A DNA stretch of 32,000 bases from Candidatus Saccharimonadota bacterium (GCA_042852035.1 BAAFHK010000003.1:1-32000); one strand, 5' to 3'. Numbered from the stretch's first letter, positions 1 to 32,000 are shown. The notes: generated by a model from the letters alone, not told the origin. Translations and numbers: made by a program.

Positions 1-403
1 GGTATTTTACAGTTGCTGCATTGAGTCCACTCGTTGCATCTGAAGCTGAGAGAGTGATGGAGATATTCGCATTTCTCCAAGCAGCAGAAGTATTATTTGC
101 GGAGATAACTGGGCTTGTTTTATCGAGCTTATATTGGTTACTGTTCCATGTCTGACTGTTTCAGGCATTGTCTGTTGCACAGAGATAGAGAGTATGTTGT
201 CCTTCTGTTGAGAGAGTTATAACATTTCCGTTTGCAAAGACCGTTCCTCATCATACACAGTCTGCATTATCCCAACGGTATTTTACAGTTGCTGCATTGA
301 GTCCACTCGTTGCATCTGAAGCTGAGAGAGTGATGGAGATATTCGCATTTCTCCAAGCAGCAGAAGTATTATTTGCGGAGATAACTGGGCTTGTTTTATC
401 GAG
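1..403 (-). repeat. 276-bp-period direct repeat inside the surface-protein CDS, with perfect 127-nt copies at 1..127 and 277..403
   Basis: Positions 1..127 and 277..403 are identical base for base (ggtattttacagttgctgcattgag...gggcttgttttatcgag). The offset of 276 nt equals 92 codons. The remaining ~149 nt of each unit are clearly diverged, and a third, more diverged copy lies near 555..650. Confidence 0.9.
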
Positions 404-931
404 ACGATATTGACCATTCCAAGTGGATTGAATTCCAGCACCATCCTGTCCACAAAGATAGAGAGTATGATCTCCATCGGTAGTAACAGAACTCGAAAAA
501 CCATTCGAATAGTCAGTTCCTGCCCAACAGTTTGAATTATCGAGTCGATATCGTGATATAGCAATATTACTTCCTCAACCATCACTCGCAAAAGCCGTGA
601 AAGCAATATTGGCATTTCTCCAAGCAGCAGAATTATTATTGGCACTCACTGACGGAGCGGTAGAATCCCATCTCCAACATCGTACCTGCGCTCATAAATC
701 TGCATCTACCTTTGTCTGACCATCTGGGTACTGCACTCAAGAGCTTCCTCCATTTCAGGCATCAGAAGTTGTGGGACCAACAGCATCAGGAGAACCATCT
801 GGACTACAATGGACGGCCCCATTGGCTACCTTGTTGATATTGTATGATCCATACCAACCAGCATGCGTATCGCTCGTAGAAATAGCGAGAGAAAGTGAAA
901 GAAGAATTCACAGAAAAGTAATTTTTTTCAT
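1..931 (-). CDS. secreted surface protein with tandem ~92-aa beta-sandwich (Ig-like) repeats; C-terminus lies beyond the window start
   Basis: ATG at 931..929 on the minus strand. The code-25 translation starts MKKITFLGILLSLSLAISTSDTHA (Sec-type signal peptide) and stays open to position 1. It holds three copies of a unit ...KTSPVISANNTSAAWRNANISITLSASDATSGLNAATVKYRWDN...HTLYLCATDNAGNSQTW..YKLD. Track ORF 283..645 is an internal fragment that ends at a TAA in a non-coding frame. Confidence 0.7.
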
Positions 932-1046
932 AGAGTTTATATAATTACCGATAGCCTATCACAATTCGATATGTTTGGTCAAATTTTGAGTGAAATTCGT
1001 AGGAAATGGCTTAGGAAAGGATTCTTCAAAGTGAGAAGGATATTAT

Positions 1047-1074
1047 TTGATTTTTCTTCCTAAACCGATAATAT
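1047..1074 (+). promoter_or_regulatory. candidate sigma70-type promoter for cluster module 1
   Basis: TTGATT (1047..1052), a 16-nt spacer, then TAATAT (1069..1074), about 22 nt upstream of the ATG at 1096. It sits in the 164-bp divergent intergenic region. Supported by pattern match only. Confidence 0.3.
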
Positions 1075-1095
1075 TGATGGCGTAAAAAACTTTCT

Positions 1096-1596
1096 ATGAA
1101 TAATATTATTCGAATTTCTGAATCCCCATATCAGCTTGAGTTTAGCGTTGACCTCAATGTTTTTCCTCTCTCGATATGCCTACGTGCTGTTTACACGTTC
1201 CTCGATCGTGGATATTTCTTTTTTGAAAAAGATCAAACCAACAATAAACTCATAGTGAAAACAATCTCAAAAAATGACGCAAAGTGGTCCAGCGAAAAAC
1301 TCCTGTCTGACTTAAGCGATGAGCTGATTGCAACAACACTTCGTGCGAGCCTCGAAAAAGAAAATAAGACTATTCGCGATGCCATAGTTATGAAGGCTCT
1401 ATGGTGAATGGAAGACCACTCAAGAATTCCACAAGAAGAAAAGGAACAAAAAGAAGAATCACTTATCGACTTCACTCAGGATGTTGACCAACTTCTTAAA
1501 GAGATAGAAGAAATTACTGTTGAACCAAAAGAACCAGATATACGTATAAATGTTAACGGTGTCTTTCATGCAAAAAAAGCATTTAAAAATCGATAG
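1096..1596 (+). CDS. HxsD-like protein (copy 1)
   Basis: Track ORFs 1096..1407 and 1408..1596 share one frame and are joined by TGA (Gly) at 1405..1407, giving 166 aa. It is a clear paralog of 20933..21487: both share FLDRxYFFF, WSSE, SDELxATxLRxxLExxNKTIRxxIVMxAL and a C-terminal AKxxFxxR. The xLxDxxLR...IR pattern resembles the His-Xaa-Ser system protein HxsD (LLNDYxLRE family, from memory). Confidence 0.6.
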
Positions 1597-1756
1597 TTCA
1601 CTCTATCCTCCTTCTGCAATTGAAAAATGCATAGCACTCTTTGATGGCTATGATATTTCATTCCATGAAGAATCACAGACTCTTGAGATGCCTGACGATA
1701 ATCAACTCATTTTAGAGTTTTTTAATCATGCACTTCATCTTACCCTCGAAAAATAG
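1568..1756 (+). CDS. 62-aa conserved small protein of the Hxs-like module (copy 1)
   Basis: The ATG at 1568 lies inside the 3' end of the previous CDS (+1 frame, 29-nt overlap), and the stop is TAG 1754..1756. The product is MQKKHLKIDSSLYPPSAIEKCIALFDGYDISF...LILEFFNHALHLTLEK. A paralog at 20767..20961 has the same MQKK start, the same 29-nt overlap and a similar size. Confidence 0.5.
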   Translation: MQKKHLKIDSSLYPPSAIEKCIALFDGYDISFHEESQTLEMPDDNQLILEFFNHALHLTLEK

Positions 1757-1760
1757 CATC

Positions 1761-3221
1761 ATGACTCATCAAACCCTCACCCTCGATCTCGCAAAAAACC
1801 CACATAAGGATGTTGCATATTTTCGCTTTCGAAAGGAAGAGGATGGAAAATATCTCATGACAACTGATAATGGCCAGTTCACCATGCTCAATGGGGAAGA
1901 TTTTATAACACTACTCGAAACATGACGTGTCCCTCTCGAAGTGAAATATAAAGAATTATGTGAAAAGTGATTTATAAAAAGCGTCACGAACTATACTGAT
2001 GTTGAAACTCGCAATTATGCTCAAAGAAATAGCTTTCTGAATACTGGACCAGCTCTACATATGATTATTACTACCCTACGATGTAATCATAAGTGTAAGT
2101 ACTGTCATGCTGCCGTTGCTCCAATGACAGCAAAAGAGCTCGACATGAGCGTCGAAACGGCAAAGAAGGTCGTTGACACCATATTTTATACTACCAATCC
2201 TTCTATAACTATAGAATTCCAGTGAGGTGAATCACTCGTAAATTGGGATGTAGTAACTTTTGTCGTGGAATATTCCCAAAAAAAAGCAAAAATTCATAAT
2301 AAGCAGCTCTATCTCACTCTCGTGACAAACCTCTCCCTCATGACGGAGGAAAAATTACAATATCTAGTAAAAAATAGGGTTTGAGTCTGTACCTCTATGG
2401 ATGGCGATAAGGAAACTCATAACTGGCAGAGAACCTTTAAAGATGGAGACTCCTATGAGCTAGTAAACTATTGGATAAAACGAGCAAACGCTCTCTATAA
2501 GGAACACTGATCAACATATAGAGTTTGAGCTCTCCTTACGCTTACAAAGCCAGCGTTGGCTCATTATAAAAAAATTATTGACGCTTACGTCGATCTTTGA
2601 TTGTGATCTGTTTGACTCAGATGGCTTAATCCATACGGATTTGCAGCTGCTGAAAGGGAAAAATTTTATTTCGACACGGATGAATTTATCACATTTTTTC
2701 GCGATGCGATGGACTACATCATCGAAATTAATAAAAAATGATACCGCCTTCGAGAAATGCTTTCCTGAGTATACCTGACAAAAATACTCACCTGACAAGA
2801 TCCGAATTTTATGGATATCAGATCCCCGTCTTGACCAGCAATTGGCTGCCTCGCGTACAATTATGATGGATCCGTCTATGCTTCTGATGAATCTCGGATG
2901 CTTGCAAGAATGGGAATAAACGACTTCTGCCTGACACCTATGCTTGATTCCCCTGAAGAAACATACAAGGCCATCACCGAATCACCGGTCACAAATATCC
3001 TTATTCAGACAAGCACTCTAGATTGACTTCCTGGATATAACGATCACGTATATAAACCCTATATTGGAGCTGACACTCTTTTTTCTTTTACTCAATCGTG
3101 AAATCCATACTCTATTTTTTCAAAAGATGAAAGAAATGTGATGCAATTAGCACGACTCGATTATTTATTTGAAAAAATGTGAGATGAAACTATAATGGAA
3201 ATCTTTAGAAAATGGATTTAA
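1761..3221 (+). CDS. hxsB: HxsB-like radical SAM peptide maturase (copy 1)
   Basis: ATG 1761, TAA 3219..3221, 486 aa once many in-frame TGA are read as Gly. Motifs: LRCNHKCKYCHAA (Cx3Cx2C); IEFQ-G-GESLVNW with the first Gly encoded by TGA 2223..2225; VTNLSL; CTSMDGDKETHN; WLNPYGFA; AYNYDGSVYASDESRMLARMG. There is no complete Cx2Cx5Cx3C SPASM motif. It is highly similar to 19311..20759. The HxsB assignment is from memory of the family plus the HxsD-like and His-rich peptide neighbours. Confidence 0.75.
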
Positions 3222-3235
3222 TTACTCCCTACTAT

Positions 3236-3601
3236 ATGAAGAAAAAAATCCCACAACTCAAGAAAAAGCTTCATGGATTCATTACGAATGAAGACTGATC
3301 TATTCGACGTGAATCTATGGTGAAACTCTCCGTATGATGAGCTATGCTCCTCTGATGAGCTTCTGCTCTTCCTGATTCAGCAAATGCAGGACATTCAAAT
3401 GGGTATATTTCCTGCGCTCCAACTGGAAACACTCCAGCGATTAATGCAAGTATTGGTGTAAATACCTCCATAAATCTCAATGGTCACTTTAATGGAGTTT
3501 GATCATCCACACATGCCAATTACGGACACTGAAATTATAGTACCGCATGTTGGCAAAACATTCATGGATCTCACGGAAGCTGTGGATGATGATGTTGGTA
3601 A
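3236..3601 (+). CDS. precursor peptide A1 (HxsA-like; His/Asn/Gly/Ser-rich core with Cys-rich C-terminus)
   Basis: ATG 3236 is 14 nt after the hxsB-like stop, and the stop is TAA 3599..3601. 121 aa with 9 in-frame TGA by my count. Leader: MKKKIPQLKKKLHGFITNEDGSIRRESMVKLSVGGAMLLGGASALPDSANA. Core: GHSNGYISCAPTGNTPAINASIGVNTSINLNGHFNGVGSSTHANYGHGNYSTACWQNIHGSHGSCGGGCW. The leader and core motifs (VNTS, NGH[FY]N, GHGN) recur in 15444..15944. Confidence 0.6.
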
Positions 3602-3619
3602 TTGTTTTTCACTCTTTTT

Positions 3620-4585
3620 ATGAATCGATACCTCGCTCTTTTTCTATTTTTCGTTTCTCCGATAATCCTTCTCTCTTCATGTACATGAATTGGATTTAAA
3701 AGTGGGAAAGTAAGTTGGAGTGATGCTCAGAATTCCAGTACTACCTATTCTTCGAAGATTGGGTGACTCTTCAAGAAAGCTCTTGATGATCCACATACAA
3801 AACAAATTGCCGAGAGAATGTATACCGATTACTCTGCTGGGATTATTACTGAGAGTTTTTTTTATACCGCGCTTACTTACCTCAACGATAAACCATCACT
3901 TCCTTCATTTCTCGAGAACTACAAAAAAAATAAGTGAGTATTTTGAGAAGAATCTTCTGATACAGCATCGGATTATATCGGTGGATACATTTTTGCTTAT
4001 GCTTGAGTAAAGACTAGTGAATGTACGGAATACACAAATGCCCTAAGTGGAACATTTGTCGGGAAAAGAATTCATGAAGGATGCATCGATTCAACCCTTT
4101 TGTATAATGTACTGGGCGAAAAAAATGAAAAAACAATTGATATATTTAAAAAATCTTGAGATTTAAAAATTAACGAAAGCCTCTTTCGTTCTATTGCAAA
4201 AGGAGAAACAAAAGACTGTTGAAGTTGCTCCGTTATTATTGAATGAGCTGACCGAGAGAAAACATTTGGCGAGATATCAAATCTTCAAAAATCAGATTTA
4301 AAAGGAAAAACTGTTAATTTTAGCTTAAAGAATTTTAATATTCTTGCACTTAAGAGCGAAATTAAGCCAAACATGTCTGATAGGGAGAAGTTTGATCTCA
4401 CATACGATAGCTTCTTACTCTATAATGCCATTTATAAATCGGATACCTCGACATGTAAGAAGCTTCTAAATGAAACACTCTCAAGTACTTGCATAAAATA
4501 TATCGAAAAGGATCGTACTCAAAAACAAGAATATACAAATTATATTGAACCATATATCATCTACAGCTACCTCTACGAACTCTAA
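3620..4585 (+). CDS. lipoprotein, function unknown
   Basis: ATG 3620. The N-terminus MNRYLALFLFFVSPIILLSSC carries a lipobox (L-S-S-C). The frame stays open, reading TGA as Gly, through to the TAA at 4583..4585 and includes track ORF 4373..4585. 321 aa. The C-terminal part contains a C-x11-C pair (CKKLLNETLSSTC). Confidence 0.6.
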
Positions 4586-5732
4586 GAAATGTCTCTACAT
4601 TCATATTCCCTTTTGTCCGACAGGATGTAAGTTCTGCCATTTCTATCTGGATGAGAAAAAATCATCCGAGAATTATATTGGTTATCTAGAGAAGGAATTT
4701 CTCTTGCGGTTTTGAGATGAAAGGGTTTTTATCGATACGATTCACATAGGTTGATGAACTCCAAATATGCTATCACAAAAAGAATTGGAGAGTCTTTTTG
4801 TTTTCATTCATAAAAGGTTTTATTGATGGAGGGAGTTTTCCATGGAGCTTCACACCGATCTCCTGACATTTCCACAGCTCGATAGCCTAAAAAATGGCTG
4901 AGTTACTCGAATCTCCTTCTGAATTCAAACATTTGATGCTGAAATACTCAAACTTCATGCACGCGTCTCTAAGAATTATGAAAAACTCTGATCCTATATC
5001 GAATATGCGAAAGAAATCGGATTTGAGAAGATAAATTTTGATCTTATTTATGACCTTATCGGGGATTCTCCTGATAAAATTCGGAAAAATATCGAATTCG
5101 TAAAACAATATCAACCAACGAGCGTGAACTATTACTGACTCAGGCTCCTTACAGACTTTCTTCGGGAAAATCATACTATGAATTACAAACGAAGACTTGC
5201 CTATTACCTTCTCATCCGAGAAGAGCTTACGAAAATCTGATACATCCAGAAAAACGATGCTATTTACCATAAACCTTGATTCGAAAATGGAAGAAACTTC
5301 TTGTATGAAGATTATGTCTACTCTAAGTCCCATACAATCTATGGTTTAGGTGTTTCAGCAACGAGTGATAATAACGAAAGATTCGCGAAGAATGTTATCT
5401 CACTTGAGAAATACAAGAACCTTCTCGACAATAATGAGTCAACACAGGATTTCCATTTTAGCCTAAGTGAGAAACCTTATCTCCTCTATAGACTTTATTA
5501 TTGGCTACTTATGTATCCTACGATGAGTTTTGCAGACTATGAAGCTGAATACTGAACTGGAACTATTCTAAAAATAAAAGAAGATATGTCGCGCCTTGAG
5601 GGTGAGGGTCTTGTAAAGATTGAAGATAGCTCTATACGATTAACCCAGAAATGACTCTTCTACTTCATGGGTCTTGAAGATATTCTTATGAAGGACTATA
5701 CTTACGAGCTCTCACTTCTAAGAAAATTATAA
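4545..5732 (+). CDS. HemN/HemW-like radical SAM enzyme (coproporphyrinogen-III-oxidase family; possible class C radical SAM methyltransferase)
   Basis: CLYIHIPFCPTGCKFCHFY from 4590; IHIG-G-G-TP with TGA TGA at 4752..4757; RISFGIQTFD; INFDLIYDLIGDS; stop TAA 5730..5732. Track ORF 5301..5555 is an internal piece. The start is uncertain: the only canonical in-frame start upstream of the cluster motif is TTG 4545, which overlaps the previous CDS by 41 nt. Confidence 0.75.
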
Positions 5733-5774: not shown

Positions 5775-6701
5775 ATGTGACCTTGAGATCTTCACATATT
5801 CTCTCTAAAAAAAGGAGCTATTATCAAAATCATTTACTGATGTAATCATAAATGTAGCTTTTGTCATGAAAAAGACAACATAGCATCGCTTGATTTTCGT
5901 TCCCTGAAGATTGAGAATCTCCAAGATATATATACATGGATACATTCAAATGGTTTTGATTATATTATACTATCTTGATGAGAGCCAACACTCCACCCTC
6001 ATTTAGTTGATTTTATAGTATTTTTTCAAGAAAAGGGCATTTATGTGGTAGTCGTCAATAATGGGACTCACCTTCATAAACACGATTTCTCAAAGGTAAA
6101 TAAAGATAAAATTACTTTTTATATATCTTATCACGGACAAAAGGAATATTACAATGATATTACAGGAAGTCATGACTTTGATATTGTAACTAAAAACATA
6201 AAAATGCTCGCTGAAAGATTTCCAGAAGTTATCCTTAGGTGTGTCCTAAATTATAAAAACCTTGAATCTATAGAAGATTTCACTCTTGAAGCTTTGAGCC
6301 TGAGCCCTTCGGTTTACCTAGAGTTTATCCTTCCTGAAGATTTGAAATATGAGCATGTAAATAAAGTCTCTATTCCTCTCAAAGAGTACCATGTTTTGGT
6401 TCTTAAATACCTCAAAAATAAACGAATACTTTTTGATGGATGAGCTGGGTGTTTCCATCCAAAGATATTCGAAATATTGGAAACACGTTTTGATCCATTA
6501 GTAAACACAATGATTGGACGAGTCAAAAAAGATAAAACTGGTCTCTTATTTAATATAAAGACTCAGGACTCTGAACATAATATCAAAAGCTTTTGGAAAA
6601 AATGCTCCCAATGCAAAAAGAAATCTTTTTGTCATTGATTTGATATTCTCTATTTGCAAAAATTTAGTAAAAATATCCCCATTGAGGATGGGAAAGTCTA
6701 A
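5775..6701 (+). CDS. radical SAM enzyme
   Basis: ATG 5775 gives MGPGDLHIFSLKKGAIIKIIYGCNHKCSFCHE (Cx3Cx2C). ILS-G-G-EPTLHP has both Gly encoded by TGA TGA. The C-terminus reads CSQCKKKSFCHG. Stop TAA 6699..6701, 308 aa. Track ORF 6045..6443 is an internal fragment in the same frame. Confidence 0.75.
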
Positions 6702-6933: not shown

Positions 6934-7992
6934 ATGATCCCCAACCTCTTTTTCGCCATCAATGAAGACTGTAATCTCGATTGTACGTACTGTAACGTCA
7001 AAAAGTCGAAACAAAAACTCTCTCTAGAAAAAATCATAGAATGAGTCCTTTATTTTATTAAGTTTTTTCCGGAAGCTACAGGATACAACATCTTTTTTAC
7101 CTGAGGAGAACCCCTTCTCTCTTTTCGGGAAATTGTATCTGCTACTTACTTTTTGAAGAAACTTGAGAAAAAAATCGGAAGAAGTTTCTCGATTCATATA
7201 CCCACGAATGGCACACTCCTCACTGATGAACGTATAGCATTTTTTGTAAAAAATAATATTACCATTTCTTTAAGTATCGATAGTCTAGATATAGCGTATT
7301 CGGAACGTCCCTTTGTGTGAAAATCCCTAGTTCCATCCCAAAGTGTTATTGCAAAAATTTTCCCGAACATAAAAAAATACGCAAATATATTTCGAATAAA
7401 AATGGTTGCAACTCCTCAGGAAGTTCCATCTATAGAGCGGACATTCTGAGAATTCTACCAACTCTGATTCCGATTTATCAATATCCAACCTGCTCATGGA
7501 GTTTATTGGTCAAAGGAAGCTCAAGACAGCTATATCGAAACTCTACTTTCCCTCAGAAAGAATCTTGAAAATTTCCCCTGACTGGAATCAACAACCCTCA
7601 AAAAATCAGGTTCACATACTCACACCATGAAACGATGTGCAAAATGAATCTCTGAAATATGCATCGATAGCTATGGGAATATTCTTACCTGTGATGCCTT
7701 TCTTGCATATAGTCCCGATATAAGAAAGTCTTTTGCATTTGATTCACTTGAAAAACCTGGATTTGATAGAGAAAAATTTCGAAAAGGTTCCGACTGGAAA
7801 TACTGTCAGAATGAAATCATTGCGCATGTTGATGGAACTATAGATTATGATCTTACCCACTGCAAAACCTGTAATGAATCGATCTCTTGTACAAAGCTCT
7901 GTAATGCTGTCCCCATAAACGGTCAAGAACTCGATAGTACTATACTTCTATCAAACTTTGAATTATTTCGTAGAATAGATTCACTTATCTAA
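6934..7992 (+). CDS. radical SAM/SPASM-domain peptide-modifying enzyme
   Basis: ATG 6934 gives MIPNLFFAINEDCNLDCTYCN. FFT-G-GEPLLS has TGA at 7102..7104. Also IPTNGTLL and ISLSIDS. The C-terminal CAKGISEICIDSYGNILTCD plus CKTCNESISCTKLC (Cx2Cx5Cx3C) is a SPASM signature. Stop TAA 7990..7992, 352 aa. Track ORF 7317..7568 is an out-of-frame shadow. Confidence 0.8.
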
Positions 7993-7993
7993 T

Positions 7994-8980
7994 ATGGATT
8001 TTGCCTATTTTCAAGTTGTACGCATCTGTAACCAAAAATGCATCTTTTGTGCTCAACCATCGAATGGAAGAATTGAGTCGCTCAAAAAAATACAAGAAAG
8101 GATTGACTGGTATAAGGACCAATGATATGAGTGAATTATCCTCAACGGCGGAGAACCAACCCTTCATAAAGAGATTGTTAACATCATTAAGTATACCGCA
8201 CAAAAGTGAATATATTCAAAAATGATATCGAATGGGATAAATTTTTCAAATGCTGAACTTGCCAAGGCTTGTGTTGATGCCTGACTCAAGCAGATTCACA
8301 TATCATTCCACAGCTATATACCAGAAGTTGAAAATAACCTCATGAGATGAGATGTTTATGAAAAGCAGCTCAAATGACTCCTCAACATGCTTCTCCATAA
8401 AAACAAGATCGATGTCTGGGTGAATATTGTTATGAACCAGTACACAATACGTCATTTAGATAAAACTGTACTTTTTTTTCTCAAACTCTGAGTGCGAAAT
8501 TTTGTTATTAATAATCTAGAAGTCACTTGAGTATATCCAGAATATTTAGAGAAATTACTGTTTCGCTTGAAAGAAGCTGAAGAGCCCCTCAAAAAGGCAC
8601 TCCATCTTATCCGAAAATATGGAAACATCGCGCGCGTCTCGCGTATCCCCATGTGCTATCTACGATGATTTGAAGACTATTCACGAGATATCGAGTATTA
8701 TATCCTCCATACAAAAAAATATATTCATTACCTGAATGATGATAAACACCCCAAGCAATCCGATTTCGTAAGCGATGAAGTAAGTTGGCAAAGTGGTGAA
8801 GGATCGCCTACTTGAATGAGACGTTCTCGAACCGAAAATTGTAGTCATTGTGATCTTCGTCATATGTGCTCCTGATATGATCTGCTTGATTTTTTCCCAG
8901 GTGAAGACCCTCTTATTCGACAGAAAGTTGATAATGAAGAAATGCAGACTATACTGAACAACATCTTATGAAAAAAATAG
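7994..8980 (+). CDS. radical SAM enzyme, possibly HxsC-like (tandem paralog 1)
   Basis: ATG 7994 is one nt after the previous stop. Motifs: VRICNQKCIFCAQPSNG; ILNGGEPTLH; ISFHSY; C-terminal ENCSHCDLRHMCSG. Stop TAG 8978..8980, 328 aa. The CxxxCxFCAQP context recalls the CxxxCxMCSQPP of HxsC (from memory, unverified). Confidence 0.7.
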
Positions 8981-9924
8981 CATACCTTCAACTTCATAGA
9001 ATCTGCGATCAAGAGTGCGTTTTTTGTGCCCAACCCTCGAATGGATCAGTACTCGATTTCAAAGCCATAAAGAAACAAATAGATGCTTTTGTTCAAGATG
9101 GTTACTCAAAGGTTATTTTTTCTTGAGGAGAACCAAGTCTCAATAAAGATTTTTTTGAAGTTATTGCGTACGGTAAAAGTCTCGGCATCGAAATGACCAT
9201 TCTCTCAAATGGTCATCGATTTTCGGAGTATGATTTCGCAAAAAAATCCGTCGAATCATGACTTCTACAGTACCATATATCCCTCCATTCACATATATCA
9301 GATATACACGACGCCTTAGTAAAAAAACCATGATCCCTGAAACGATGTTTTCAAGCGCTTCATCATCTACTATCACTCTCTGCGCACATCACAATAAATA
9401 TAACGATTAATGCTTATAATGTATCCTATTTTGATAGGCTTATTAAAGCTATCCTCAAAGAATTCCCTTCTATTCATGGATTTATTATCAATAACCTTGA
9501 AACCTCTCAGATTCCTCGAGAGCATTATAGTGTTATAGCAAAACTTTCGGAGATAAAAAAAACCATTCCGAATACCCTTCAAATTTTAGAAAATTCTGGT
9601 AAAAAATTCCGTATAGAAAGGGTTCCTTTCTGCTATATTCGATGATACGAGCATCATTCTACCGATCTTGAGTACGTCATCGACGGGGAAGAAAAATTTC
9701 TTCACTATCTCTGAGAGTCAAGAGCGTCTCACAAGGTAAAAAAAGAAAACTACGTTCATAACTCCAAATATGGCGAATCATGCTCAGCATGTGATCTAAA
9801 ATGACTCTGTGCTGGTCAGGAAGGTCTCAATATCCACTACTTTCCCGAAGAGCTTATTCCACAGACCGTAAGTGAAGCTGAGAAAAAACAAATTATTCAA
9901 AAATTCTATGAATGTTATTGTTAA
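8968..9924 (+). CDS. radical SAM enzyme, possibly HxsC-like (tandem paralog 2)
   Basis: ATG 8968 overlaps the previous CDS by 13 nt. Motifs: HRICDQECVFCAQPSNG; IFS-G-GEPSL (first Gly is TGA); ISLHSH; ERVPFCYIRGYE (compare RIPMCYLRGFE in the paralog); SCSACDLKGLCAG. Stop TAA 9922..9924, 318 aa. Confidence 0.7.
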
Positions 9925-19305: not shown

Positions 19306-19310
19306 ACGAA

Positions 19311-20759: not shown

Positions 20760-20766
20760 ATATTCC

Positions 20767-20961
20767 TTAGATTAATTTTTCATTATAAAGTGCGACACAG
20801 TAATTTGAAAATTCATCAAACAGTCATTGTGGATCCTCATCCTGAATTGAAATTCCATCTTGAATAGATTGAATATCAAAAGACTCAAATTCAGAGATTG
20901 CTTCTTCCAGAAGGGCTTGAGGATAGAAATTTTTATCGAGATTGAAATTTTTCTTTTGCAT
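20767..20961 (-). CDS. 64-aa conserved small protein of the Hxs-like module (copy 2)
   Basis: ATG 20961 lies inside the end of the HxsD-like CDS (29-nt overlap, other frame), and the stop TAA is at 20767..20769. The product MQKKNFNLDKNFYPQALLEEAISEFESFDIQS...GLFDEFSNYCVALYNEKLI is a paralog of 1568..1756. Confidence 0.5.
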
Positions 20962-21487: not shown

Positions 21488-21536
21488 AGAATTATAAATT
21501 TTATATGAGAGAGAAATTCTGAATTTCCGAAGAGTT

Positions 21537-22529: not shown

Positions 22530-22677
22530 GCGATAATGGTACCCTCATAAAGAAGAAAATCAATCTGAATTAGGAGAGAATATATTGACTTTGTATAATA
22601 TTCATTCACCGAAATATTTAGAAAAGGAAATGCAAGGTTTCTCTCGACAGAAGTTACTTTTTTACCATAATGAAAGT

Positions 22678-23700
22678 ATGCATCTTCTCATCGATACACG
22701 CCTTACTTCCGCATCTGATATCCCATTTCTTCATTATGCTCTTCTTTGGGCTGATGTTTGGAAAATTTACCATCCTCATGATGATATTTCATTTCTCGCC
22801 CATGAAGATGATCCTCACATAAGTTACGATTGCATCCGTGTGAGAAAGACTTGGCACAATTTCTCAAAAAAGAAGATTGCCTCCCATAATCACTGACCAG
22901 AACGAGTCATTTCATTTTCGAGACTTCCACCATATGATAGAAGCATAAAACAGGTTAGCCATATAAGCGATATTGCTCCCATTTTATACCCTTCGAAACC
23001 ATTAAAGGGTATCGAATATAGATGGAGACTCCATGAATACAAAAATCTTCTTAGTCATAGCCATTCGATTATCATCCCTCATCGCGATACACTTTCAACC
23101 TTGAGTGAACTTTTTTCTCCAGAGGAAGAAAAGATAACAGTTATCCCCTACCTTCATCCACTTGATGATGAGGTCTATAAAATTAGAACTATTCTCCCTC
23201 ATGGAATTTTTGGTGACTACTTTATTACAGAAGGTGCCGAATGACTCGAATGGAGGCCTCTCGAACTCATCGAAGCCTATGCCACTTATGTTCATCGAAT
23301 GTGAGGGAAAGAAAAACTTATTATACTTTGAGATGTTGGGGACAATCTCTGAGTTATGAGTTCCATGATTCGAACATTAGATCTTCTTGATTCAATAAAG
23401 ATTATCGGAACACTCTCTCGTGAAGAAAGAGAACTTCTCTACGTCCACGCAATCGGATGGATATATGCTGGATCATACTATTCTCGTGGAGCAAGCATAG
23501 GCCTTGCATCATGATATAATATTCCTCTCTTCTTTACAGATATCTCCTGACTGCGTAACTATACCTGAATCTACTTCCACCCAAACCATCTTGAAAGACT
23601 CCCAGAGCTCCTTAGAAAAGAAAAAAATAAATACCAAATTCAAGTAAAAGCAAATAATGAAGCAATAATGGAAGTATACTCACGAATCATTAGTGAGTAA
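22678..23700 (+). CDS. glycosyltransferase, GT-B fold (GT1/GT4-like)
   Basis: It shares the frame of track ORF 22585..22896, which has a TTG start. The most GT-like start is ATG 22678 (MHLLIDTRLTSASDIPFLHY). I translated codon by codon to TAA 23698..23700. Motifs: LSHSHSIIIPHRDTLSTL; EKITVIPY; YFITEGAEGLEWRPLELIEAY; KLIILGDVG; IGTLSREERELLYVHAIGWIY. Confidence 0.65.
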
Positions 23701-23783
23701 AACTTGCAAAAGCAATGAAGTTGTATACCATAATCGCAAAGATTTCCCATTTCATTTTTGGCACCCTATAATTTCTTCTCATT

Positions 23784-24305
23784 ATGACAAAATTATTCTG
23801 AGTAAATAAAGTAAAAGCTCAGGCACCTTCTGAAACTCACCAAATCAGACATGTGAGCCATGATGATAATAATCATGGGAATCATCACCATCATCATGAA
23901 GATCATGATGATGTAGAAGAAAAGTATGAGGAAATCGATGAAATACACGATCATCATGATGAGGAACATAATGTAGACCTCGGCCAAATAGCTGTAGATG
24001 TTTTAGATCTTACAGATGAAATTATTATTGTAGCTCCAATTGCTTGAGTTGACCCAAGCGATATCGATATTGGTCTTTCACGAAATATTCTCACTCTTTC
24101 ATGAGAACGAAAAACTCCAAGCATCTATATGGACGCTAAAAGGATGCTCGTCGAAGAGTGTTTCTTTTGAGCATTTTCTCGATCAATAATTCTCCCAGAA
24201 AATTTGGCTTTTAATAAAATTCGTGCTACCGTAGAAGAAAATGTAATTATGGTACATGTGCCAAAACTTTCATTTTTTTCAAAGACTATTAAAGTTGAAA
24301 AATAG
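23784..24305 (+). CDS. Hsp20/alpha-crystallin small heat-shock protein with His-rich N-terminal region
   Basis: It shares the frame of track ORF 23853..24047. Upstream ATG at 23784, stop TAG 24303..24305. The alpha-crystallin core reads IAVDVLDLTDEIIIVAPIAGVDPSDIDIGLSRNILTLSGERK...EECFFGAFSRSIILPENLAFNKIRATVEENVIMVHVPK. The N-terminus reads HDDNNHGNHHHHHEDHDD...DHHDEEH. The start is uncertain. Confidence 0.75.
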
Positions 24306-24337
24306 AGTGAAAATACCGTCCCTTTTTTGTAGGAAAT

Positions 24338-24604
24338 ATGTTTTTTAAAAAGAAAGATACCATCCCAGAAGAAAATGTTGCGAAACAAAGTATCAAAAAA
24401 ATGGATCATGTTGTAACTGGCCTTCTTCTTGGTGGAGTTATTGCCTCAATTTATGGGGTAAAGAAACTCCATAATAAATGAAATCATGATGTTCACGAAT
24501 GATGAACTCAAGATGAGAATCATGCTCATGAAGAACATGGCAATCATCAAAGTGATAAAAAGAAGCAGGGCATAGTTTCTCGTCTCTTTTTTGGAAATAA
24601 GTAG
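24338..24604 (+). CDS. small membrane protein with His-rich C-terminal tail
   Basis: ATG 24338, TAG 24602..24604, 88 aa. It has one TM segment (VVTGLLLGGVIASIYGV) followed by HNKGNHDVHEGGTQDENHAHEEHGNHQSD. There are three in-frame TGA. Confidence 0.4.
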
Positions 24605-24606
24605 TT

Positions 24607-25287
24607 ATGATACGAAAAATTCTTACATTTCTTTGTATCCTAGTTGTCTCGATAGACGAAACAAGTGCGCTTATAGAGTATACAAAACCTACTAAAGCTG
24701 AGATTGATAGTGCTACGAAAGTATGTTTGGAGAAAGGAAAATCAAATAATGAAGAGAAATATACTTGTCCTAACGGATCATATCAAAAATCGGACGGAAG
24801 AGTACTCAGCCAACAAGTAGTAACATGTGGCGTAAAGATGGCACTTACTTTTAGTGCTATTGATGAATCAGCCAAAAAATGGATGAAAGAACTTCAAAAT
24901 CAGAGAAATCCTGACTTTAATGTTTGGAGTTGAGATATTGATACTACCGTTCAGGAACTGAATGATACCTATTCTTCTGTTTGCAAAACTATAACTTGGA
25001 CCAAGCGAGAAAATGACCAAGAAGTTGCCTGTGCAAACACTCAAGATTTCTTTTCTGAAACAGCCTGTGATGTAATTGCTCGAAAAAAATCAAGTGCATG
25101 GAAAAATGCCTGATATATCCTTGCAGCCAAAGGGATAGCAAAGAATGCTCAGAATGACAAAGATACCTTTGTTGACCAGAAAAAGACAAAATACAGTGAA
25201 CTTATCAACAAGTGGAATTCATATAAGCGAATAGTCGGGAATGCTGTTGCAAAGATGACAGCATATGTACGATCACCCGTAAAATAG
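24607..25287 (+). CDS. secreted hypothetical protein
   Basis: Track ORF 24607..24933 (MIRKILTFLCILVVSIDETSA signal peptide) continues through TGA 24931..24933 to TAG 25285..25287. 226 aa. No family recognised. Confidence 0.55.
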
Positions 25288-25291
25288 ATTT

Positions 25292-25702
25292 CTAGAGAAA
25301 ATCTCTTAGGTGAAGAAAAATATACTTCCATTTTTCAGGGTTCGTCATATTTCTCGTTGGTGATTGCATTTGAGCTTTCGTATTTGCCAGAACCTCATTT
25401 ACATCAATATCTTCATTCGCCTTTACATTGGACTCATCAACAATATTGGTAACCTCTTCTCATGCGAGCTTCTTATTTTGTGTTGCTTTTGCCACGTAGC
25501 TCTGGTACGCGTTCGTGCGGATATAGAGAGTAAGATCTTGTTTTCTCTCATTTCTTTCAGCTATCTTTTTATTAATATTCTCAAGTGAGCTCACATAACT
25601 ATTTGTCTGATACTGCTCATACTCATAATATACAATAAGATAAACCTCATAAATAAGTATAAAAATAAGTCAAACAAGTATGTAACGAAACTTACTATTC
25701 AT
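25292..25702 (-). CDS. septum-formation-initiator-like (FtsB/DivIC family) membrane protein
   Basis: ATG 25702, TAG at 25292..25294, 136 aa. It has an N-terminal TM segment (YILVGLIFILIYEVYLIVYY), then a coiled-coil segment and YIRTNAYQSYVAKATQNKKLAGEEV, which resembles the DivIC C-terminal motif (yie..AR..lg...pgE). Confidence 0.45.
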
Positions 25703-25805
25703 AGACGAAATTTGCTTTCACTTTTTGTTTCTCTACAATATCCATAAATATCATTTTTTCCAATCGGAGTGAACATAAAAATCCTCTAATTTTCCCTCAC
25801 CAATT

Positions 25806-26951
25806 ATGAATTTTCGCGCTATACTGTACACCCTTGCCTGACTTATAGGAATCTTTATTATCCTTTTTAGTTGGAGCGCTTATCAGTACTATGAAATTGT
25901 ACATGCTGACGATCCCATTCATCCAAAAATTGAAGCCACAATAGGAAAAAGCAAGATTGTTCGAGGCGATTATACCTATGAACTGAATGAAACTGAAACA
26001 TACAAACTTGAAAATAATGATATCATCGAGACTGGAAAAGAAAGTCGTGCAACAATTACATGGCCTGATAAAAGTATTACTCGTCTCTGACCAGCAACAA
26101 GAATAGTTATCGAAAAAATGTATGCAAGTACTGGATATGAGAACATTGCCATCTCGTATAAAATAGAACACTGAAAGGTTTGGAATACGGTTATTCGCTC
26201 ACTTATTTGAGATTCCTACTTTGAAGTAGAACTTCCAAGAGAAGGTGTCGTTGCTGGAGTGAGGGGGACTATTTTTGAGATTAACCTCGAAAATAAATAT
26301 ATTCACGCAGTCAATCATAATACTTCACTCACCCAAAAAAACCAGACAATTAACCTACTTCCTTGAGAGGTGGTCGATAGTGAAAATATACTTCTCAAGA
26401 AAGGGAAAGAATGGCTCGATACACGATGGAGCGAATGGAATGAAGCATCTGATGCTGTATATCAGTCTATCCAAAAGCTTAATCTTGATGCTCGATTCGA
26501 AAGCCTCACTAAAGATATTGGCAAGATAAATTTCTCAAATCTTACGAGAACTGTATTGGAAAATGTATGATGATTTGAAGATCTATCAATTGCTGAGTTA
26601 ATAAAAAGTAACCAACTTGATGAACTTAAAAAAATCTCAACCAATTCTCTTCTTTCATACTATCAGAAACTCTGAAACCTGAATAACAATGAATCGCGAG
26701 AAAAGTTAAGAAAAGCTCTTCTAGATTTGGAAGACGAATCTATCGCAAATATTCGCGAATCACTCCAAATACAGGAAATCTGGGAAAGTATCGATACATG
26801 AAAACTTACGGAAGGCACCAAAAAATATCTCGAAAGCAAGTGAGTGAATACCAATGAGTTTGCCACAAAATTTATGTCTGGAGCAAGCGCTGATATTACT
26901 GGTTTCAAAGAATTTCTTTCATGATGATTTAATAGAGTATTAAATCAATAA
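25806..26951 (+). CDS. FecR-domain membrane-anchored protein
   Basis: ATG 25806, TAA 26949..26951, 381 aa. The N-terminal TM is ILYTLAGLIGIFIILF. ATITWPDKSITRLGPATRIVIEK...ISYKIEHGKVWNTV...FEVELPREGVVAGVRGTIFEINLE matches the FecR beta-sandwich pattern (...agVRGT.F.v). Track ORF 25797..26171 on the minus strand is its antisense shadow. Confidence 0.5.
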
Positions 26952-26953
26952 TT

Positions 26954-28312
26954 CTAAAAAAGATAAATACCTGAAATTGTAAAAATTCAAAGTATTATGG
27001 AAAGCGCAAAACCAACAAATACTTTCTTTCCATATTCCTTCTCTCCAAATCTATACGCTATTGATGCTTTTACGGTATTATTAGACATTACAGCAAGAAG
27101 TATCGTTGTTGAGGCGATAAAGAGTGGGATTGATCCTTCTTTTGCTCACTCACTCATAGCAAAGTTCACAGCGTCTACATCAGCAAAACCTGATACAAGA
27201 CCGAGAAAATAGTTAGAAATCTCCTGTGGAACAATATCCTTATATACCTTTCCAAGAATAGCTATAAATTTTATTATCAAAATGAGTCCGGCAAACTGGA
27301 GAGCTGGAACCAATTGAAATGGACTTTCATAATTCCCTTCCTTTTCAGCCTTTATTACTGGTATTTTTTCTTGCCATGCGTTTAAGAGATGGAAGGCTGT
27401 TACTCATGCAAGCCCAAGAAACATCATAGCCCCTGGAAGAATAATCGAATCGAGTATATTGGGATAAATATATCCGGCTACAACAATCACACGAATAAAC
27501 ATAATACATGAAGCCAGAAGGGTTGCTGTGGCATATGAATTTCTGTGTTCTGGGTGCTCTACGCTTTTTCGTGTCATAGCAACCGTAGTGGCCGTTGAAG
27601 ATATAAGGCCTCACACCGCTCAGGAAGCAAGTATTCATCATTTATCACCAAGTGCCTTTCAAAGAAGAAATCCTGCATATTCAACTCCGGCCATAACAAC
27701 GACAAAAAACCAGATACCGTAAGGATTAAAAAACTTTGCTGTAAGGACTGGATGAACCCATGAAAGACTCCCATTCGCAAACCAATTCGCCATATCAACG
27801 AAAGAATACTTATCATCAGGAAGAAGTGGAAGAATAACCAAAGCGATTACTGCAAATTTTAGGCTATCACCAAGCTCTTCTCTGGAAAATCGAGATTTCA
27901 TCTTCGTGAAAAACTCCTTTGCTGAGAGAAGTAAAAGTAGCAGTATTGATAAAATAACTGCTGTTGTATACTGTCACATCATTGCAACGACTCAGATAAA
28001 GTACGTAATAAGTCATGCATATTCGCTTGTGGCACCCATTTTATTTTTTTCAAATGACGAATAGGCGTATGCCATAAGAATAAATACCCCTGAAATAATA
28101 GCTCCAAAGAGAGTCCAAAACTTCGTACCAAGCTTCATATCAATCCATGAAGCTATTGCTCCAAAAAATGCAATCGAAGCATACGTACGAATTCCTCAGA
28201 AACCAGTAGCTCCTCCAGGTTTAGTTCCAGACCATGGGAGTTCACGCTCCGTTCCGATAAGTCAACCAAGAGCAAGGGCAAGAAGAAAACCAATAAATAC
28301 TGAAGGCTCCAT
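26954..28312 (-). CDS. MgtC/SapB-family N-terminal domain + DUF4010 integral membrane protein
   Basis: ATG 28312, TAG at 26954..26956, 452 aa. MEPSVFIGFLLALALGGLIGTERE...GGIRTYASIAFFGA is the MgtC-type motif. The protein is polytopic and includes track ORF 27659..27901 (...VILPLLPDDKY...). All pieces share one frame when TGA = Gly. Confidence 0.7.
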
Positions 28313-28480
28313 AGAAAAGGTGAAGTTACGAATTGAAAATTATGAATACTTGGAATAATTTGAGAGATAATATCATAAATTCAGCGGGAAAGAAAGAAAT
28401 GAGAAAAAAACTCTCGTCAATGGAGAAATTTATGGAGGAATCATTTATTATAAATATGAGGATATTATGAATAAAGTATA

Positions 28481-28507
28481 AAAAAAACTCCCCTAAGGGG
28501 AGTTTTT
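28481..28507 (-). terminator. rho-independent terminator-like GC hairpin flanked by A and T runs (bidirectional shape)
   Basis: aaaaaaACTCCCCtaaGGGGAGTtttt: a 7-bp GC-rich stem (28487..28493 / 28497..28503) with a 3-nt loop, flanked by an A7 run on one side and a T run on the other. It lies 14 nt downstream of the stop of the minus-strand CDS 28517..29569. The GC stem stands out in this AT-rich DNA. Confidence 0.6.
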
Positions 28508-28516
28508 AAATTTCAT

Positions 28517-29569
28517 TTACTTTGTTTTTGCTTGATAAAGGTTACGTCCGACTCGCTCAATGTATCTCTTATTTTGAAGATTCATGTAGATGGTTGTTGT
28601 CTTTACTTGACGAACCTTAAGAACGCGAGCAGTAATCTCCTCAGTCGAGAGTGGAGCTCATGCTTTCTTAAAAATATCAAGTATAACATCAAGAACTGTA
28701 CCATCTTTGTATCCCCAATCTTTAAGTACATAGATACCACGACCTATAAGAACAAACTCTACATTTCGAATGAGCTCATTATGAATTGTGGAAATTTTTA
28801 CCGGCTCATTAAAGTATTCAGTAATAGCATTCGCAATGTCAAGAAAATGCATTGGCTCTTTCTTCTTTTTAAGAACATAGATGGCCTTATCTTTCAGGGT
28901 TGATGGATTTAAAATCTTCCACTTCTCAAGTCAGACAAATTTCTCTTCACCCTTTACAAGATCAAGATAAATATCAATAATCGAATCAATCATGATAGGT
29001 TCAATCTTTCCGAATTGTGCAAAGAGGTTAATCTTTATCATTTCGTAAAGTGTTGCATTCTCCATTATATCTCATTTCTTCTTGAGAATCTTAAGTGCTT
29101 CTTTATGTACCGATTCAATAAGCTTTTTCTGAATTTCAGGAAAGTGGTAGTATGTAACCGTTCCAAGTTGTGGTTTTGAACGTTGAAGATTGAAGTCAGC
29201 CTGAAGAAGTACATCGATAATGTTGTAGTTTACTTCATCTGTGAATCCAATCTCTGCAATTATAGCAGAAATAAGACGATCACGAGTCATTACTCCACCA
29301 TGAATTCTAAGTACCTTTTCTCATGCTTCTTGAATCTTCATGAGTGGACTTGAACGCATAATACGTCCAATCTTCTTTATTCCAACATCTTCTATCTGAC
29401 GAACTCTTTCACGAGTGATTCCATACGTATCACCGATTTCCTGAAGAGTTTCTCTATTCCCAATAAGCCCTATTCGACGTGAAATAACATTTCTCTCCTT
29501 TTCAGCTAGTGACTCGAGTATTGTGTGAAAAATATGTGATATATCAAATGGTGCTGTAGTAGCTGACAT
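28517..29569 (-). CDS. sigma-70 region-4 HTH + HARE-HTH domain protein (transcription factor / sigma-like)
   Basis: Track ORFs 29321..29569, 29072..29290 and 28658..28852 are all in one frame and joined by TGA. Stop TAA at 28517..28519, 350 aa. EKERNVISRRIGLIGNRETLQEIGDTYGITRERVRQIEDVGIKKI is a sigma70 region 4 HTH. MHFLDIANAITEYFNEPVKISTIHNELIRNVEFVLIGRGIYVLKDWGY is HARE-HTH-like, as in the RNAP delta subunit N-terminus. Confidence 0.65.
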
Positions 29570-29696
29570 AAGGGAAAGTATAAGTTCTAGATAAGGAAAA
29601 ACCTACAGAATTGTGTCAATTGCAAAAATCAAAAAGTATATTTTACGAATGACTCCTTAAGAGTCATACTATAGATTTTTTTTTAAAGTCAAGTTT

Positions 29697-30341
29697 TTAA
29701 ATAGGAAGAGTCATGTTGCCCTCTTTTTTCTTTTCTGTACTATGTTTTCCTCACTCTAGAATACCTTTATATTCATCGAGTTCACTCTGTTCTTTTTTAT
29801 CGAGATAGCTCATGCTCACAGCACGAGTTTTTTCTCATTGAGAAAAGAAATATGCTCAAATGTAAAGGAGAAAAATTGAGGAAATAGCAAGTTTAAGTCA
29901 GAATCACGGAATTACTTCTTGTGAAGATATTCTTGTATAGGCAAATGAAGCTACAGTAAAAGAAAGGATTGCCACTCAGAGAAGAGATGTCACAAACACA
30001 ACTGCTTGAGCATCGGAAAGGCGAAAAGGAACAAATGCACGAAATCGTTCTTTTTTTTCATGTGAAAGCAGAAAAAAAAGAATAAGAAGGATTGAAAGTA
30101 TAATCCCATATCAAACTCATCCAACATAGAGAGAAAAAGCAGAATAACCCGCTTCTCAAGCTCACAATGGCTTTTTGAAAATAAGCCAAGGAAAGAAAAG
30201 AGAGAGACCAAGCATACCAAGACAGAAAATAATTGTTTTTCCAGGAAGTCAGAGTCGATATGTTCAAAAATTCAGTCTTTGAAAGAATCCAAAAATTTGC
30301 GTTTTTAGTTTCCGATTTTTCGAATTCCGTATATAATCCAT
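29697..30341 (-). CDS. hypothetical polytopic membrane protein
   Basis: ATG 30341, TAA at 29697..29699, 214 aa in a frame that carries about 10 TGA and no TAA or TAG. It has several hydrophobic segments (IIFCLGMLGLSLFFPWLIF, GYGIILSILLILFFLL, AVVFVTSLLGVAILSFTVASF, LKLAISSIFLLYIGAYFF). The two track ORFs here (29990..30220 and 30058..30267) are in other frames and look low-complexity. Confidence 0.4.
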
Positions 30342-30363
30342 ATGGAAAATCTAATTTTAGATA

Positions 30364-30696
30364 ATGAGCTTTTCTCTAGAAAGAGAGAATGCCTTTAAAA
30401 GAAGCTATACATATATTCTTTTTTTGCAAGTGAAAATGCGGTCACCAAATGAAAATATTTACCTCATTCTCTTCTCAACCTTTGTTGAATGAGTAAAAAA
30501 AACATTCGAGAATATCACCCAACTTGTCTCATCTTGAAATTGAGATAGATCATGAATAATCTACAGCATATTTCATTACATATTTGTTGATTGACCAAAA
30601 AAATTTCGAAAAAATCCAACTGCTGTATCCATTGGAAGGGGTATATTTTCACCCTTCATATTTGTCTTTAAAAAATCGCAATGAAATTCAAAATAA
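30364..30696 (+). CDS. hypothetical small protein (weak call)
   Basis: ATG 30364 to TAA 30694..30696, 110 codons, open if six TGA are read as Gly. It overlaps the following pilin-like CDS by 16 nt. I recognised no motif. An open frame of this length is unusual in AT-rich DNA but is not proof of coding. Confidence 0.25.
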
Positions 30697-31913
30697 TACC
30701 ATCAATCTTTTTAAATAAATCAACTCGTCTAAAACATTGATTTACGTTATTTGAACTCATGCTTGGAATGACAATATTTTCCATGCTTATGGTATTCACT
30801 CTTCAGGCCGTATGAAACGTTACTATAGCAAGAACCCGGAGTATGAGCAGAATTACCCTCATTGAAGAACTTTACTTCTTTTCTGAAAAGCTCGCAACAC
30901 AAATTAAAGAAGGATGAATTATAGACTACGAGGAGTACTGGAACCGACAAATGCGGGAGGCGAGCCCAAGCCCAACAGCTACATGAACAGCATCATGACA
31001 CTACATCCTTCCAACAGGATTTGGAAATTATGGTGAAGGTGGGGCGAGCCCACTTTGAACTGGATCAACAAATTACTGAAGTGGCTATTATTATTGTAAA
31101 AGTGAAAATGCCTGAAATAAAATGGGAACCAATGGTTGTATCATTGATATCTTAAATAGTCCTGGTTGAGATCAGGCGGGTGACTATCAAAGATACTGAG
31201 AGTATAAGCTTCAATTTACAGACTATAATGGTAATGCTGATAATGATAATGGCATCCCTTGAGATGAGGACGAAGAAGGAAACATTCGCTGAGATGAAGA
31301 TGATAAAGATATTGGTGATGGGCCTCTAGTAATTACTTGATCTTCTCCAGAACTCTACCTCATAAATACTCTTTCGAAAGAAAGAACATACTTCCGACTC
31401 ACTTATAAACAAGATCCAAATCACCCGAATACCTGTAATTTTACTACTTTTGGAACGGGATGTCTTGGTAATATAGAAATGCTCAAACTAAAATGACTCG
31501 ATATAGGACTTGGGCATTCATGAGGACTCAACGATGCAAACAATCCAGGCGCATTTGATTGAGATATAGACACATGGGTTTGTCATCAGGACTGGACCTG
31601 TAATGGACCTACTCTCGCAAACAATTATGGCGTTCTCCCCACTGGAAGAGACAGTGAATGGGTTCCACTATTCCCAGATTATGTAAATGTAAAACAACTT
31701 ACTTTTAGTCTCTACCCACGAAAAGATCCTTGGAAATCCTGGGCTGCAATTGACTCTTTCAGCCCTGGAGCAGTGAGCCCCTTCCTTCACCCATATGTAC
31801 GAGTTCAGATGACTATGTGACTTGCTTGGGAAAAACGAAAACTTATCAATAACGATGATCCAACGATTTCTATCTCAACCACAATTAGCCTCTCAAATAG
31901 TATAACTGAATAA
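30681..31913 (+). CDS. type IV pilin / pseudopilin-like protein with prepilin-type N-terminal cleavage/methylation signal
   Basis: ATG 30681 gives MKFKIIPSIFLNKSTRLKH-G-FTLFELMLGMTIFSMLMVFTL. This is the class III signal G|FTLxE with Glu at +5, and the invariant -1 Gly is TGA 30738..30740. I translated codon by codon to TAA 31911..31913. 410 aa, with a large globular part that includes an Asp-rich loop. Confidence 0.7.
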
Positions 31914-31925
31914 TTTATCTTCTTC

Positions 31926-32000
31926 CATGAATTCTTCTCGACAGGGCTCTGCCCTACTCATATCGCTTATTGTTCTTACGCTCATGATGATAATGAGTAG
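31926..32000 (+). CDS. minor pseudopilin-like protein, N-terminal fragment (runs off the window end)
   Basis: ATG 31926 gives MNSSRQGSALLISLIVLTLMMIMS.... This is a short polar head followed by a hydrophobic helix, as in PilX/GspK-type minor pilins. It sits immediately downstream of the pilin-like CDS. Confidence 0.4.
   Translation, partial: HEFFSTGLCPTHIAYCSYAHDDNE

Follow-up and report, generated by a model that had tools for sequence, protein, structure and literature searches.

Genetic code 25 in a 32-kb stretch of Gracilibacteria-type DNA: UGA very probably read as ordinary glycine

Described reassignments of UGA and the present locus

The reading of UGA as glycine was described by Campbell et al. 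2013 and Rinke et al. 2013 (both cited in PMC8629427). In this clade, UGA is decoded by a tRNA-Gly with the anticodon UCA, and release factor 2 (RF2) has been lost; the glycine identity elements of the tRNA(UCA) are G1:C72, C2:G71, G3:C70 and U73 (PMC8629427). The reassignment, entered in the standard code tables as code 25 (Candidate Division SR1 and Gracilibacteria code), is supported by a screen with the genetic-code inference tool Codetta (PMC8629427) and by the proteomics of a BD1-5/SN-2 bacterium, in which 97 glycine-specific peptides stood against 3 tryptophan-specific peptides at UGA (PMC4032931). Here we analyse a stretch of 32,000 bp with 36.2% G+C (BAAFHK010000003.1:1-32000; the window in the following), whose genes are interspersed with in-frame TGA codons. 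Our sequence comparisons make it very probable that the window derives from the chromosome of a Gracilibacteria-type (BD1-5) bacterium from the candidate phyla radiation (CPR) in which code 25 is in use, i.e. UGA serves as an ordinary glycine codon and termination is left to UAA and UAG alone.

The window shares with the described code 25 systems the frequent TGA at glycine positions, TAA and TAG as the sole stops and the Gracilibacteria relatives, and the evidence is of the same in silico kind; its G+C content of 36% lies inside the published range of 0.21-0.53. There is no difference in kind, and TGA is the top glycine codon in the window (41% of all glycine codons). Since code 25 has been known since 2013, the finding is correct rather than novel. 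The Absconditabacteria (SR1) are likewise a CPR lineage with UGA as glycine. For them, however, Codetta predicts that CGA and CGG encode tryptophan beside the UGA reassignment (PMC8629427), and CGA is rare there (<37 per 10,000 codons), whereas it accounts for 111 of 10,041 codons in the window. Code 4, which is found in Mycoplasma/Spiroplasma and several insect endosymbionts, is similar in that a reduced, AT-rich bacterium has turned the UGA stop into a sense codon, but the amino acid is tryptophan there, whereas the residue-level tests described below give glycine in the window. It is important to note that ORF statistics alone cannot separate code 25 from code 4.

Reading frames and the amino acid at TGA

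With translation table 11, the window yields 33 open reading frames (ORFs) of at least 100 aa, none of them longer than 202 aa, and only 51% of its length falls within non-overlapping ORFs that run from stop to stop over at least 80 aa (median 104 aa). When TGA was freed, 31 ORFs that begin with ATG and span at least 80 aa, with short intergenic gaps, covered 94.1%; counted from stop to stop, 33 ORFs with a median length of 322 aa, the longest of them 757 aa, covered 92%. Freeing TAG in a control resulted in 64% coverage and a longest ORF of 202 aa, freeing TAA in 72% and 363 aa, and 20 shuffles of the window with TGA as a sense codon did not exceed 42% coverage and 235 aa. As neither the other two stops nor shuffling gave a comparable gain, the readthrough effect is specific to TGA. 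In-frame TGA makes up 282 of the 10,041 codons of the 31 ORFs (2.8%) and occurs at least once in 30 of them, and the frames contain no TAA or TAG before their ends. Twenty of the ORFs terminate with TAA and ten with TAG, while one runs off the window start. Pfam/NCBIfam matches continue uninterrupted across the TGA codons, e.g. over positions 1-210 of 210 in DUF4010 and 2-466 of 466 in HxsB. Taken together, these data support TGA as a sense codon, with TAA and TAG kept as stops.

A first-pass annotation, made from the sequence alone, had described genes that are shredded under the standard code and contiguous once TGA is read, with coding sequences ending only in TAA or TAG. Re-calling of the ORFs bears out both statements (51% against 92-94% coverage; TAA or TAG at the end of all 30 complete ORFs). 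The tight packing that it reported was also seen, but its count of about 35 coding sequences was slightly too high. Because two small conserved ORFs, which are homologous to each other and match an HxsD-like model, add to the 31 longer ones, we arrive at a total of about 33 genes; one of the 31, at 30364-30696, is doubtful. All sites cited in that annotation (2223-2225, 7102-7104, the TGA TGA at 4752-4757, 14121-14123, 14130-14132 and 30738-30740) indeed read TGA in the frame of the long ORF.

For the identity of the encoded amino acid, TGA was kept as 'X' in all queries so that the tests of its meaning were not biased. The composition of the predicted proteins already points to glycine. GGN codons alone would give a glycine content of 4.07%, which rises to an ordinary bacterial value of 6.88% when TGA is added; tryptophan, at 0.94% from TGG, would reach an implausible 3.74%. 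With 282 occurrences, TGA is the most used glycine codon of the window, ahead of GGA (207), GGT (106), GGG (56) and GGC (40).

Columns of database homologues were considered as independent evidence and rejected, as the collection renders recoded relatives with TGA as tryptophan. Because such columns show artificial mixtures of glycine and tryptophan, we replaced them by comparisons at the DNA level and by TGA-free orthologues. An orthologue scan with the protein of g27, an MgtC/DUF4010 membrane protein and our main test gene, yielded 80 loci at one genome per species. Five loci with in-frame TGA were excluded, leaving 75 standard-code loci from archaea, Proteobacteria, Anaerolineae and others. 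In the columns of the 13 TGA codons of g27, these orthologues have glycine in 421 of 975 cells (43%) and tryptophan in none, which compares with 39% glycine in the columns of the GGN-coded glycines of the same protein. Four columns are nearly or fully invariant: glycine occupies 74 of 75 cells at TGA 27992-27994 and at 27635-27637, 70 of 75 at 27620-27622 and 75 of 75 at 27611-27613. When all 20 candidate meanings of TGA were ranked with BLOSUM62, glycine came first (+22.3), followed by alanine (+4.2), and tryptophan was last (-29.2). A search of the PDB with g27 gave no match.

A second line of evidence is provided by a relative, L083, a 58-kb Logan contig with 41% G+C that is syntenic with g16-g31 (17012-31913) and whose proteins are 45-98% identical to those of the window. 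The Logan assemblies DRR350542, SRR14932559 and SRR30605902 contain the window sequence or this relative. Over 4,953 aligned codons, with the paralogue pairs of g02 and g03 (1096-3221) also counted, TGA is paired with TGA in 30 cases, with GGN in 76 (GGA 40, GGT 16, GGG 14, GGC 6), with TGG in a single one and with other codons in 41. TGG is thus the partner in only 1 of 118 non-identical TGA pairs, whereas TGG itself faces TGG in 54 of 66 cases. Since the pairing profile of TGA is essentially that of GGA, TGA behaves as a synonymous glycine codon. Among the paralogues within the window (two HxsB, HxsC-like and HxsD genes), TGA has 53 non-identical partners, of which 18 are GGN and none is TGG; a TGA-Cys pairing occurs once.

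The use of TGA at aligned sites is asymmetric between the two contigs. A TGA in the window faces GGN in L083 at 61 sites, against 15 for the reverse, and the totals are 114 and 64 TGA, respectively. The window is also the more AT-rich of the two (36% vs 41% G+C). This suggests an ongoing GGN-to-TGA drift under AT pressure.

Profile scores and structural alignments give the same picture. In eight domain comparisons with curated hidden Markov models (HMMs), for which TGA was translated as Gly, X or Trp (Table 1), the glycine version always scored highest, the undetermined residue surpassed tryptophan except in g07, and the summed difference between glycine and tryptophan amounts to about 122 bits. 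Further translations of g03 also stayed below the glycine version (Ser 432.7, Ala 432.2, Glu 427.6, Arg 423.8, Leu 416.3 and Cys, the lowest, 413.0 bits). On the structural side, E. coli HemN (1olt) has the GG of HWGGGTP opposite the TGA TGA of the HemN-like g06, and of the 11 TGA codons in this alignment 6 face glycine and none tryptophan. TGA 8282-8284 of g09 faces glycine at the 'DAGL' site in three PDB radical SAM structures. In the methyltransferase g13, TGA 14910 and 14922 face both glycines of DLGCSLG in CmoA (4gek), TGA 15228 faces the glycine of KRANGYSE, and TGA 14121 faces the third and last glycine of GCGTG in PRMT1.

The earlier proposals at the residue level fared accordingly. 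The glycines assigned to TGA in the HemN-like GGGTP and in the radical SAM sites agree with the PDB alignments, and the expectation that TGA columns match a glycine consensus is confirmed by HMMs, orthologue columns and PDB alignments, all of which favour glycine over tryptophan. The proposal that TGA spells the motif-I glycines of two methyltransferase domains holds for 14121, 14910 and 14922 but not for 14130, which faces a serine in PRMT1 and is not a canonical motif-I glycine. The overall assignment of UGA to glycine (code 25) throughout the window is upheld by the agreement of orthologue columns, L083 codon pairs, HMMs, PDB alignments and composition.

Rival readings, decoding and lineage

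Some observations weigh against the assignment to glycine. In relatives, about one third of the TGA positions are occupied by residues other than glycine, among them Ser, Ala, Asn and Glu. One TGA of g13 lies opposite the tryptophan of SEWMGY in PRMT1, albeit in the same weak alignment (E = 0.007) that includes 14121 and 14130. Moreover, a tRNA search of the window, L083 and seven related CPR loci revealed no tRNA-Gly(UCA); the window is devoid of any tRNA gene, and the only tRNA in the searched loci is a tRNA-Arg(GCG) in L004. Non-glycine partners would be expected at variable glycine positions, and GGN-coded glycines spread likewise.

A translation of TGA as tryptophan (code 4), as in Mycoplasmatales/Entomoplasmatales and some insect endosymbionts, would equally account for a sense codon at low G+C (36%). 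It is also the translation that the relatives already carry in the public protein collection, and the PRMT1 alignment fits it. Yet it is contradicted by the lack of tryptophan (0 of 975 cells) where the standard-code orthologues align with TGA, by the single TGG against 76 GGN codons opposite TGA, by the last rank among 20 amino acids in the BLOSUM62 scoring and by tryptophan translations that lie 7-31 bits under glycine in all eight HMM comparisons. In addition, it would mean 3.7% tryptophan and just 4.1% glycine, and the nearest relatives are Gracilibacteria, not Mollicutes. We therefore regard code 4 as highly improbable. Still less credit, a chance close to nil, can be given to genuine termination at TGA under the standard code, be it in decayed pseudogenes, through assembly errors or with selenocysteine or programmed read-through at scattered sites. 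Apart from the default use of table 11 and the rare genes in which TGA can encode selenocysteine, nothing favours this reading; 282 in-frame TGA codons over 30 of 31 ORFs without internal TAA or TAG, full-length domain matches across TGA codons and the retention of TGA or its exchange with GGN in a relative with 45-98% identical proteins are difficult to reconcile with termination. Assembly errors are contradicted by two independent Logan assemblies that agree at 99.6-99.97% identity. Against selenocysteine speak the share of TGA among all codons, the lowest score of the cysteine translation for the HxsB protein g03 and the single TGA-Cys pairing among paralogues; an Rfam scan of the window at gathering thresholds gave no match, hence no selenocysteine insertion sequence (SECIS).

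A context-dependent decoding, in which UGA is mainly glycine but sometimes a stop or read by a near-cognate tRNA-Trp, would result in a heterogeneous proteome. This scenario draws on the few peptides fitting Trp, Ala, Lys or Asp at UGA in the BD1-5 proteomics (PMC4032931) and on the potential U34 wobble ambiguity between UGA and UGG noted by the Codetta authors (PMC8629427). No feature of the window speaks for it, however. Each of the 30 complete ORFs ends with TAA or TAG beside the next gene, none would be better explained by a TGA end, and TGA is found at invariant catalytic or structural glycines (GGEP, GGGTP, motif I), at which decoding errors would carry a high cost. We thus consider ambiguous decoding unlikely, with a slim chance that is still somewhat larger than that of the two other alternatives.

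Returning to code 25, the decoding in the source organism would involve a tRNA-Gly with anticodon UCA that reads UGA, and RF2 would have been lost. As no tRNA-Gly(UCA) turned up in the searched loci, we infer this mechanism from published work on the clade. No release factor is found among the window's 33 ORFs, which in a stretch of 32 kb is silent on the remaining genome.

The lineage was assigned by protein similarity only. The nearest named relatives of g27 are annotated as 'Candidatus Gracilibacteria bacterium', and among the species representatives a Gracilibacteria and a 'Patescibacteria group' metagenome-assembled genome come closest (62-65% identity), both with in-frame TGA. CGA, which constitutes 1.1% of the window codons, faces arginine in 67 of 94 and lysine in 12 of 94 cases in the relative; for CGG the values are 11 of 21 and 5 of 21, a small sample (n=21). 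A further reassignment of CGA, CGG, AGG or AGA was considered and rejected, as all four behave as arginine codons; the apparent 'differences' for ATG and TGG in the reassignment table are artefacts of leaving out identical pairs. Because CGA is common and both CGA and CGG pair as arginine, the extended reassignment of these codons to tryptophan is not present in the window, and the source is consequently a Gracilibacterium rather than an Absconditabacterium. The first-pass annotation had proposed a CPR bacterium of Gracilibacteria/Absconditabacteria type, which is supported by the names of the relatives and narrowed to the Gracilibacteria by the arginine codons. A phage or plasmid origin was rejected in view of the lack of phage-like genes among the Pfam/NCBIfam matches and the synteny with the 58-kb contig, whose genes are of housekeeping type.

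Peribacteria are generally described with the standard code. In two genomes labelled 'Candidatus Peribacteria', the MgtC/DUF4010 orthologue contains 5 (L004 10001-11329; CP060226.1) and 7 in-frame TGA codons (L006 10001-11350). Either these genomes are recoded too, or the labels are loose.

Gene content and consequences

The features of the window are compiled in Table 1. A large part of it (1096-22529) is taken up by a duplicated two-module radical-SAM locus of the His-Xaa-Ser (HXS) type.

Table 1. Features of the window. Bits are given for TGA translated as Gly / X / Trp.
Feature	Product	Position	Strand	TGA	Profile (bits)	Remarks
g01	Repeat-containing surface-protein fragment	2-931	-	8		Cut by window edge
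g02	HxsD-like	1096-1596				HXS locus
Small ORF	HxsD-like	1550-1756	+			Conserved
g03	HxsB radical SAM maturase	1728-3221	+	16	TIGR03978 (HxsB) 446.7 / 425.4 / 416.1	FQ-TGA-GESL at 2223-2225
g04	HxsA3-like precursor	3212-3601				HXS locus
g06	HemN-like radical SAM	4545-5732	+		Radical_SAM 71.3 / 61.6 / 60.0	TGA TGA at 4752-4757
g07	HxsC-like/SPASM-type radical SAM	5775-6701	+		Radical_SAM 75.1 / 64.7 / 68.4	TGA in GGEP at 5976-5981
g08	HxsC-like/SPASM-type radical SAM	6934-7992	+			TGA in GGEP at 7102-7104
g09	HxsC-like/SPASM-type radical SAM	7994-8980	+		Radical_SAM 77.4 / 65.7 / 62.0	
g10	HxsC-like/SPASM-type radical SAM	8968-9924	+		Radical_SAM 62.7 / 55.1 / 53.9	TGA in GGEP at 9124-9126
g11	PEP-utilising enzyme					HXS locus
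g12	547-aa protein					HXS locus
g13	Fused CmoB-like/CmoA-like methyltransferase	13146-15392	+	25		HXS locus; 749 aa, two methyltransferase domains
g14	Second HxsA3-like precursor	15444-15944				HXS locus
g16	aKG-HExxH peptide beta-hydroxylase					HXS locus; 62.1 bits vs cut-off 40
g17	A24-peptidase-like membrane protein	18106-19305	-			Minus-strand HXS module; 400 aa
g18	Second HxsB	19311-20759	-	11	TIGR03978 (HxsB) 447.2 / 433.7 / 425.9	Minus-strand HXS module; FQ-TGA-TGA-ESL at 20310-20315
Small ORF	HxsD-like	20767-20961	-			Minus-strand HXS module; conserved
g19	HxsD	20933-21487	-	0		Minus-strand HXS module; sole ORF without TGA
g27	MgtC + DUF4010 membrane protein	26954-28312	-	13	DUF4010 160.0 / 146.8 / 142.6; MgtC 59.2 / 52.5 / 48.6	Main test gene
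	Sigma-70 region 4 + HARE-HTH protein	28517-29569	-			
g31	Type IV pilin-like protein	30681-31913	+	17		TGA at 30738-30740

Both HxsB proteins score above the curated cut-off of 370 bits. One HxsD passes its cut-off (65.2 vs 50 bits) and the other remains just under it (47), while the HxsA3-like precursors (23.6 and 41.7 vs 65 bits) and the four HxsC-like radical SAM genes are below theirs. The precursors are short His-x-Asn/Ser peptides without a peptidoglycan-binding domain, and some codons of their G-H-x-N/S repeats are TGA. In E. coli, the canonical HxsABCD system blocks the entry of phage DNA, as shown in 2026 (PMC13128918). It consists of four genes, whereas the locus in the window is far more elaborate. 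Since the canonical system blocks phage DNA entry, the locus could be a new, more elaborate HXS variant for defence or peptide maturation in an episymbiotic CPR bacterium, a reading that we regard as possible yet rather doubtful.

In g06, the CxxxCxxC cluster and GGGTP are located upstream of the first ATG (4767) in a frame that opens at 4497. The gene therefore probably starts with the TTG at 4545, the sole canonical alternative and one that gives a 41-nt overlap with the end of the preceding gene. The exact product of g19 was found on two short Logan contigs of the same organism; with 99.6-99.97% identity to the window, they are uninformative for substitutions. In the surface-protein fragment g01, a 40-residue segment, DKTSPVISANNTSAAWRNANISITLSASDATSGLNAATVKY, recurs unchanged, and the sole domain match, to DUF7743, is weak; the TGA at 161-163, within 'DNA-x-NSQTWN', corresponds to the glycine of the sister repeat 'DGAGIQSTWN'.

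The glycine at position -1 of the cleavage site is invariant in type IV pilins. In g31, position -1 of the class III signal x|FTLFE, with glutamate at +5, is a TGA, and the same holds for the L083 orthologue. This is consistent with the invariant pilin glycine but does not constitute independent evidence. The pilin-like gene lies 11 kb from g17, which is situated inside the second HXS module and carries a type IV prepilin peptidase (A24) domain at its N-terminus; this peptidase may process either pilins or the HxsA-like peptides. The gene encoding sigma-70 region 4 and HARE-HTH domains is 98% identical to its L083 orthologue, compared with 45-89% for its neighbours, and is thus unusually strongly conserved.

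The first-pass annotation had warned that any standard-code annotation of this locus would be wrong. This is correct, and the translation of TGA as tryptophan that relatives receive in the public collection is wrong as well. The relatives of g27 in this collection (P0001-P0120) have TGA rendered as tryptophan, mixed Gly/Trp columns where glycine is invariant and a tryptophan content that reaches 3-5%, i.e. the database sequences of the clade are systematically mistranslated. Pipelines with table 11 shred all genes of the window but one. Those that choose table 4 by coding density place tryptophan at about 2.8% of the residues, including the invariant catalytic glycines in GGEP, GGGTP and methyltransferase motif I. 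With this result, code 25 gains a further confirmed instance and the contig is assigned to the Gracilibacteria, while no fresh question about the genetic code arises; for the clade, mistranslation as tryptophan degrades homology search, structure prediction and family assignment.

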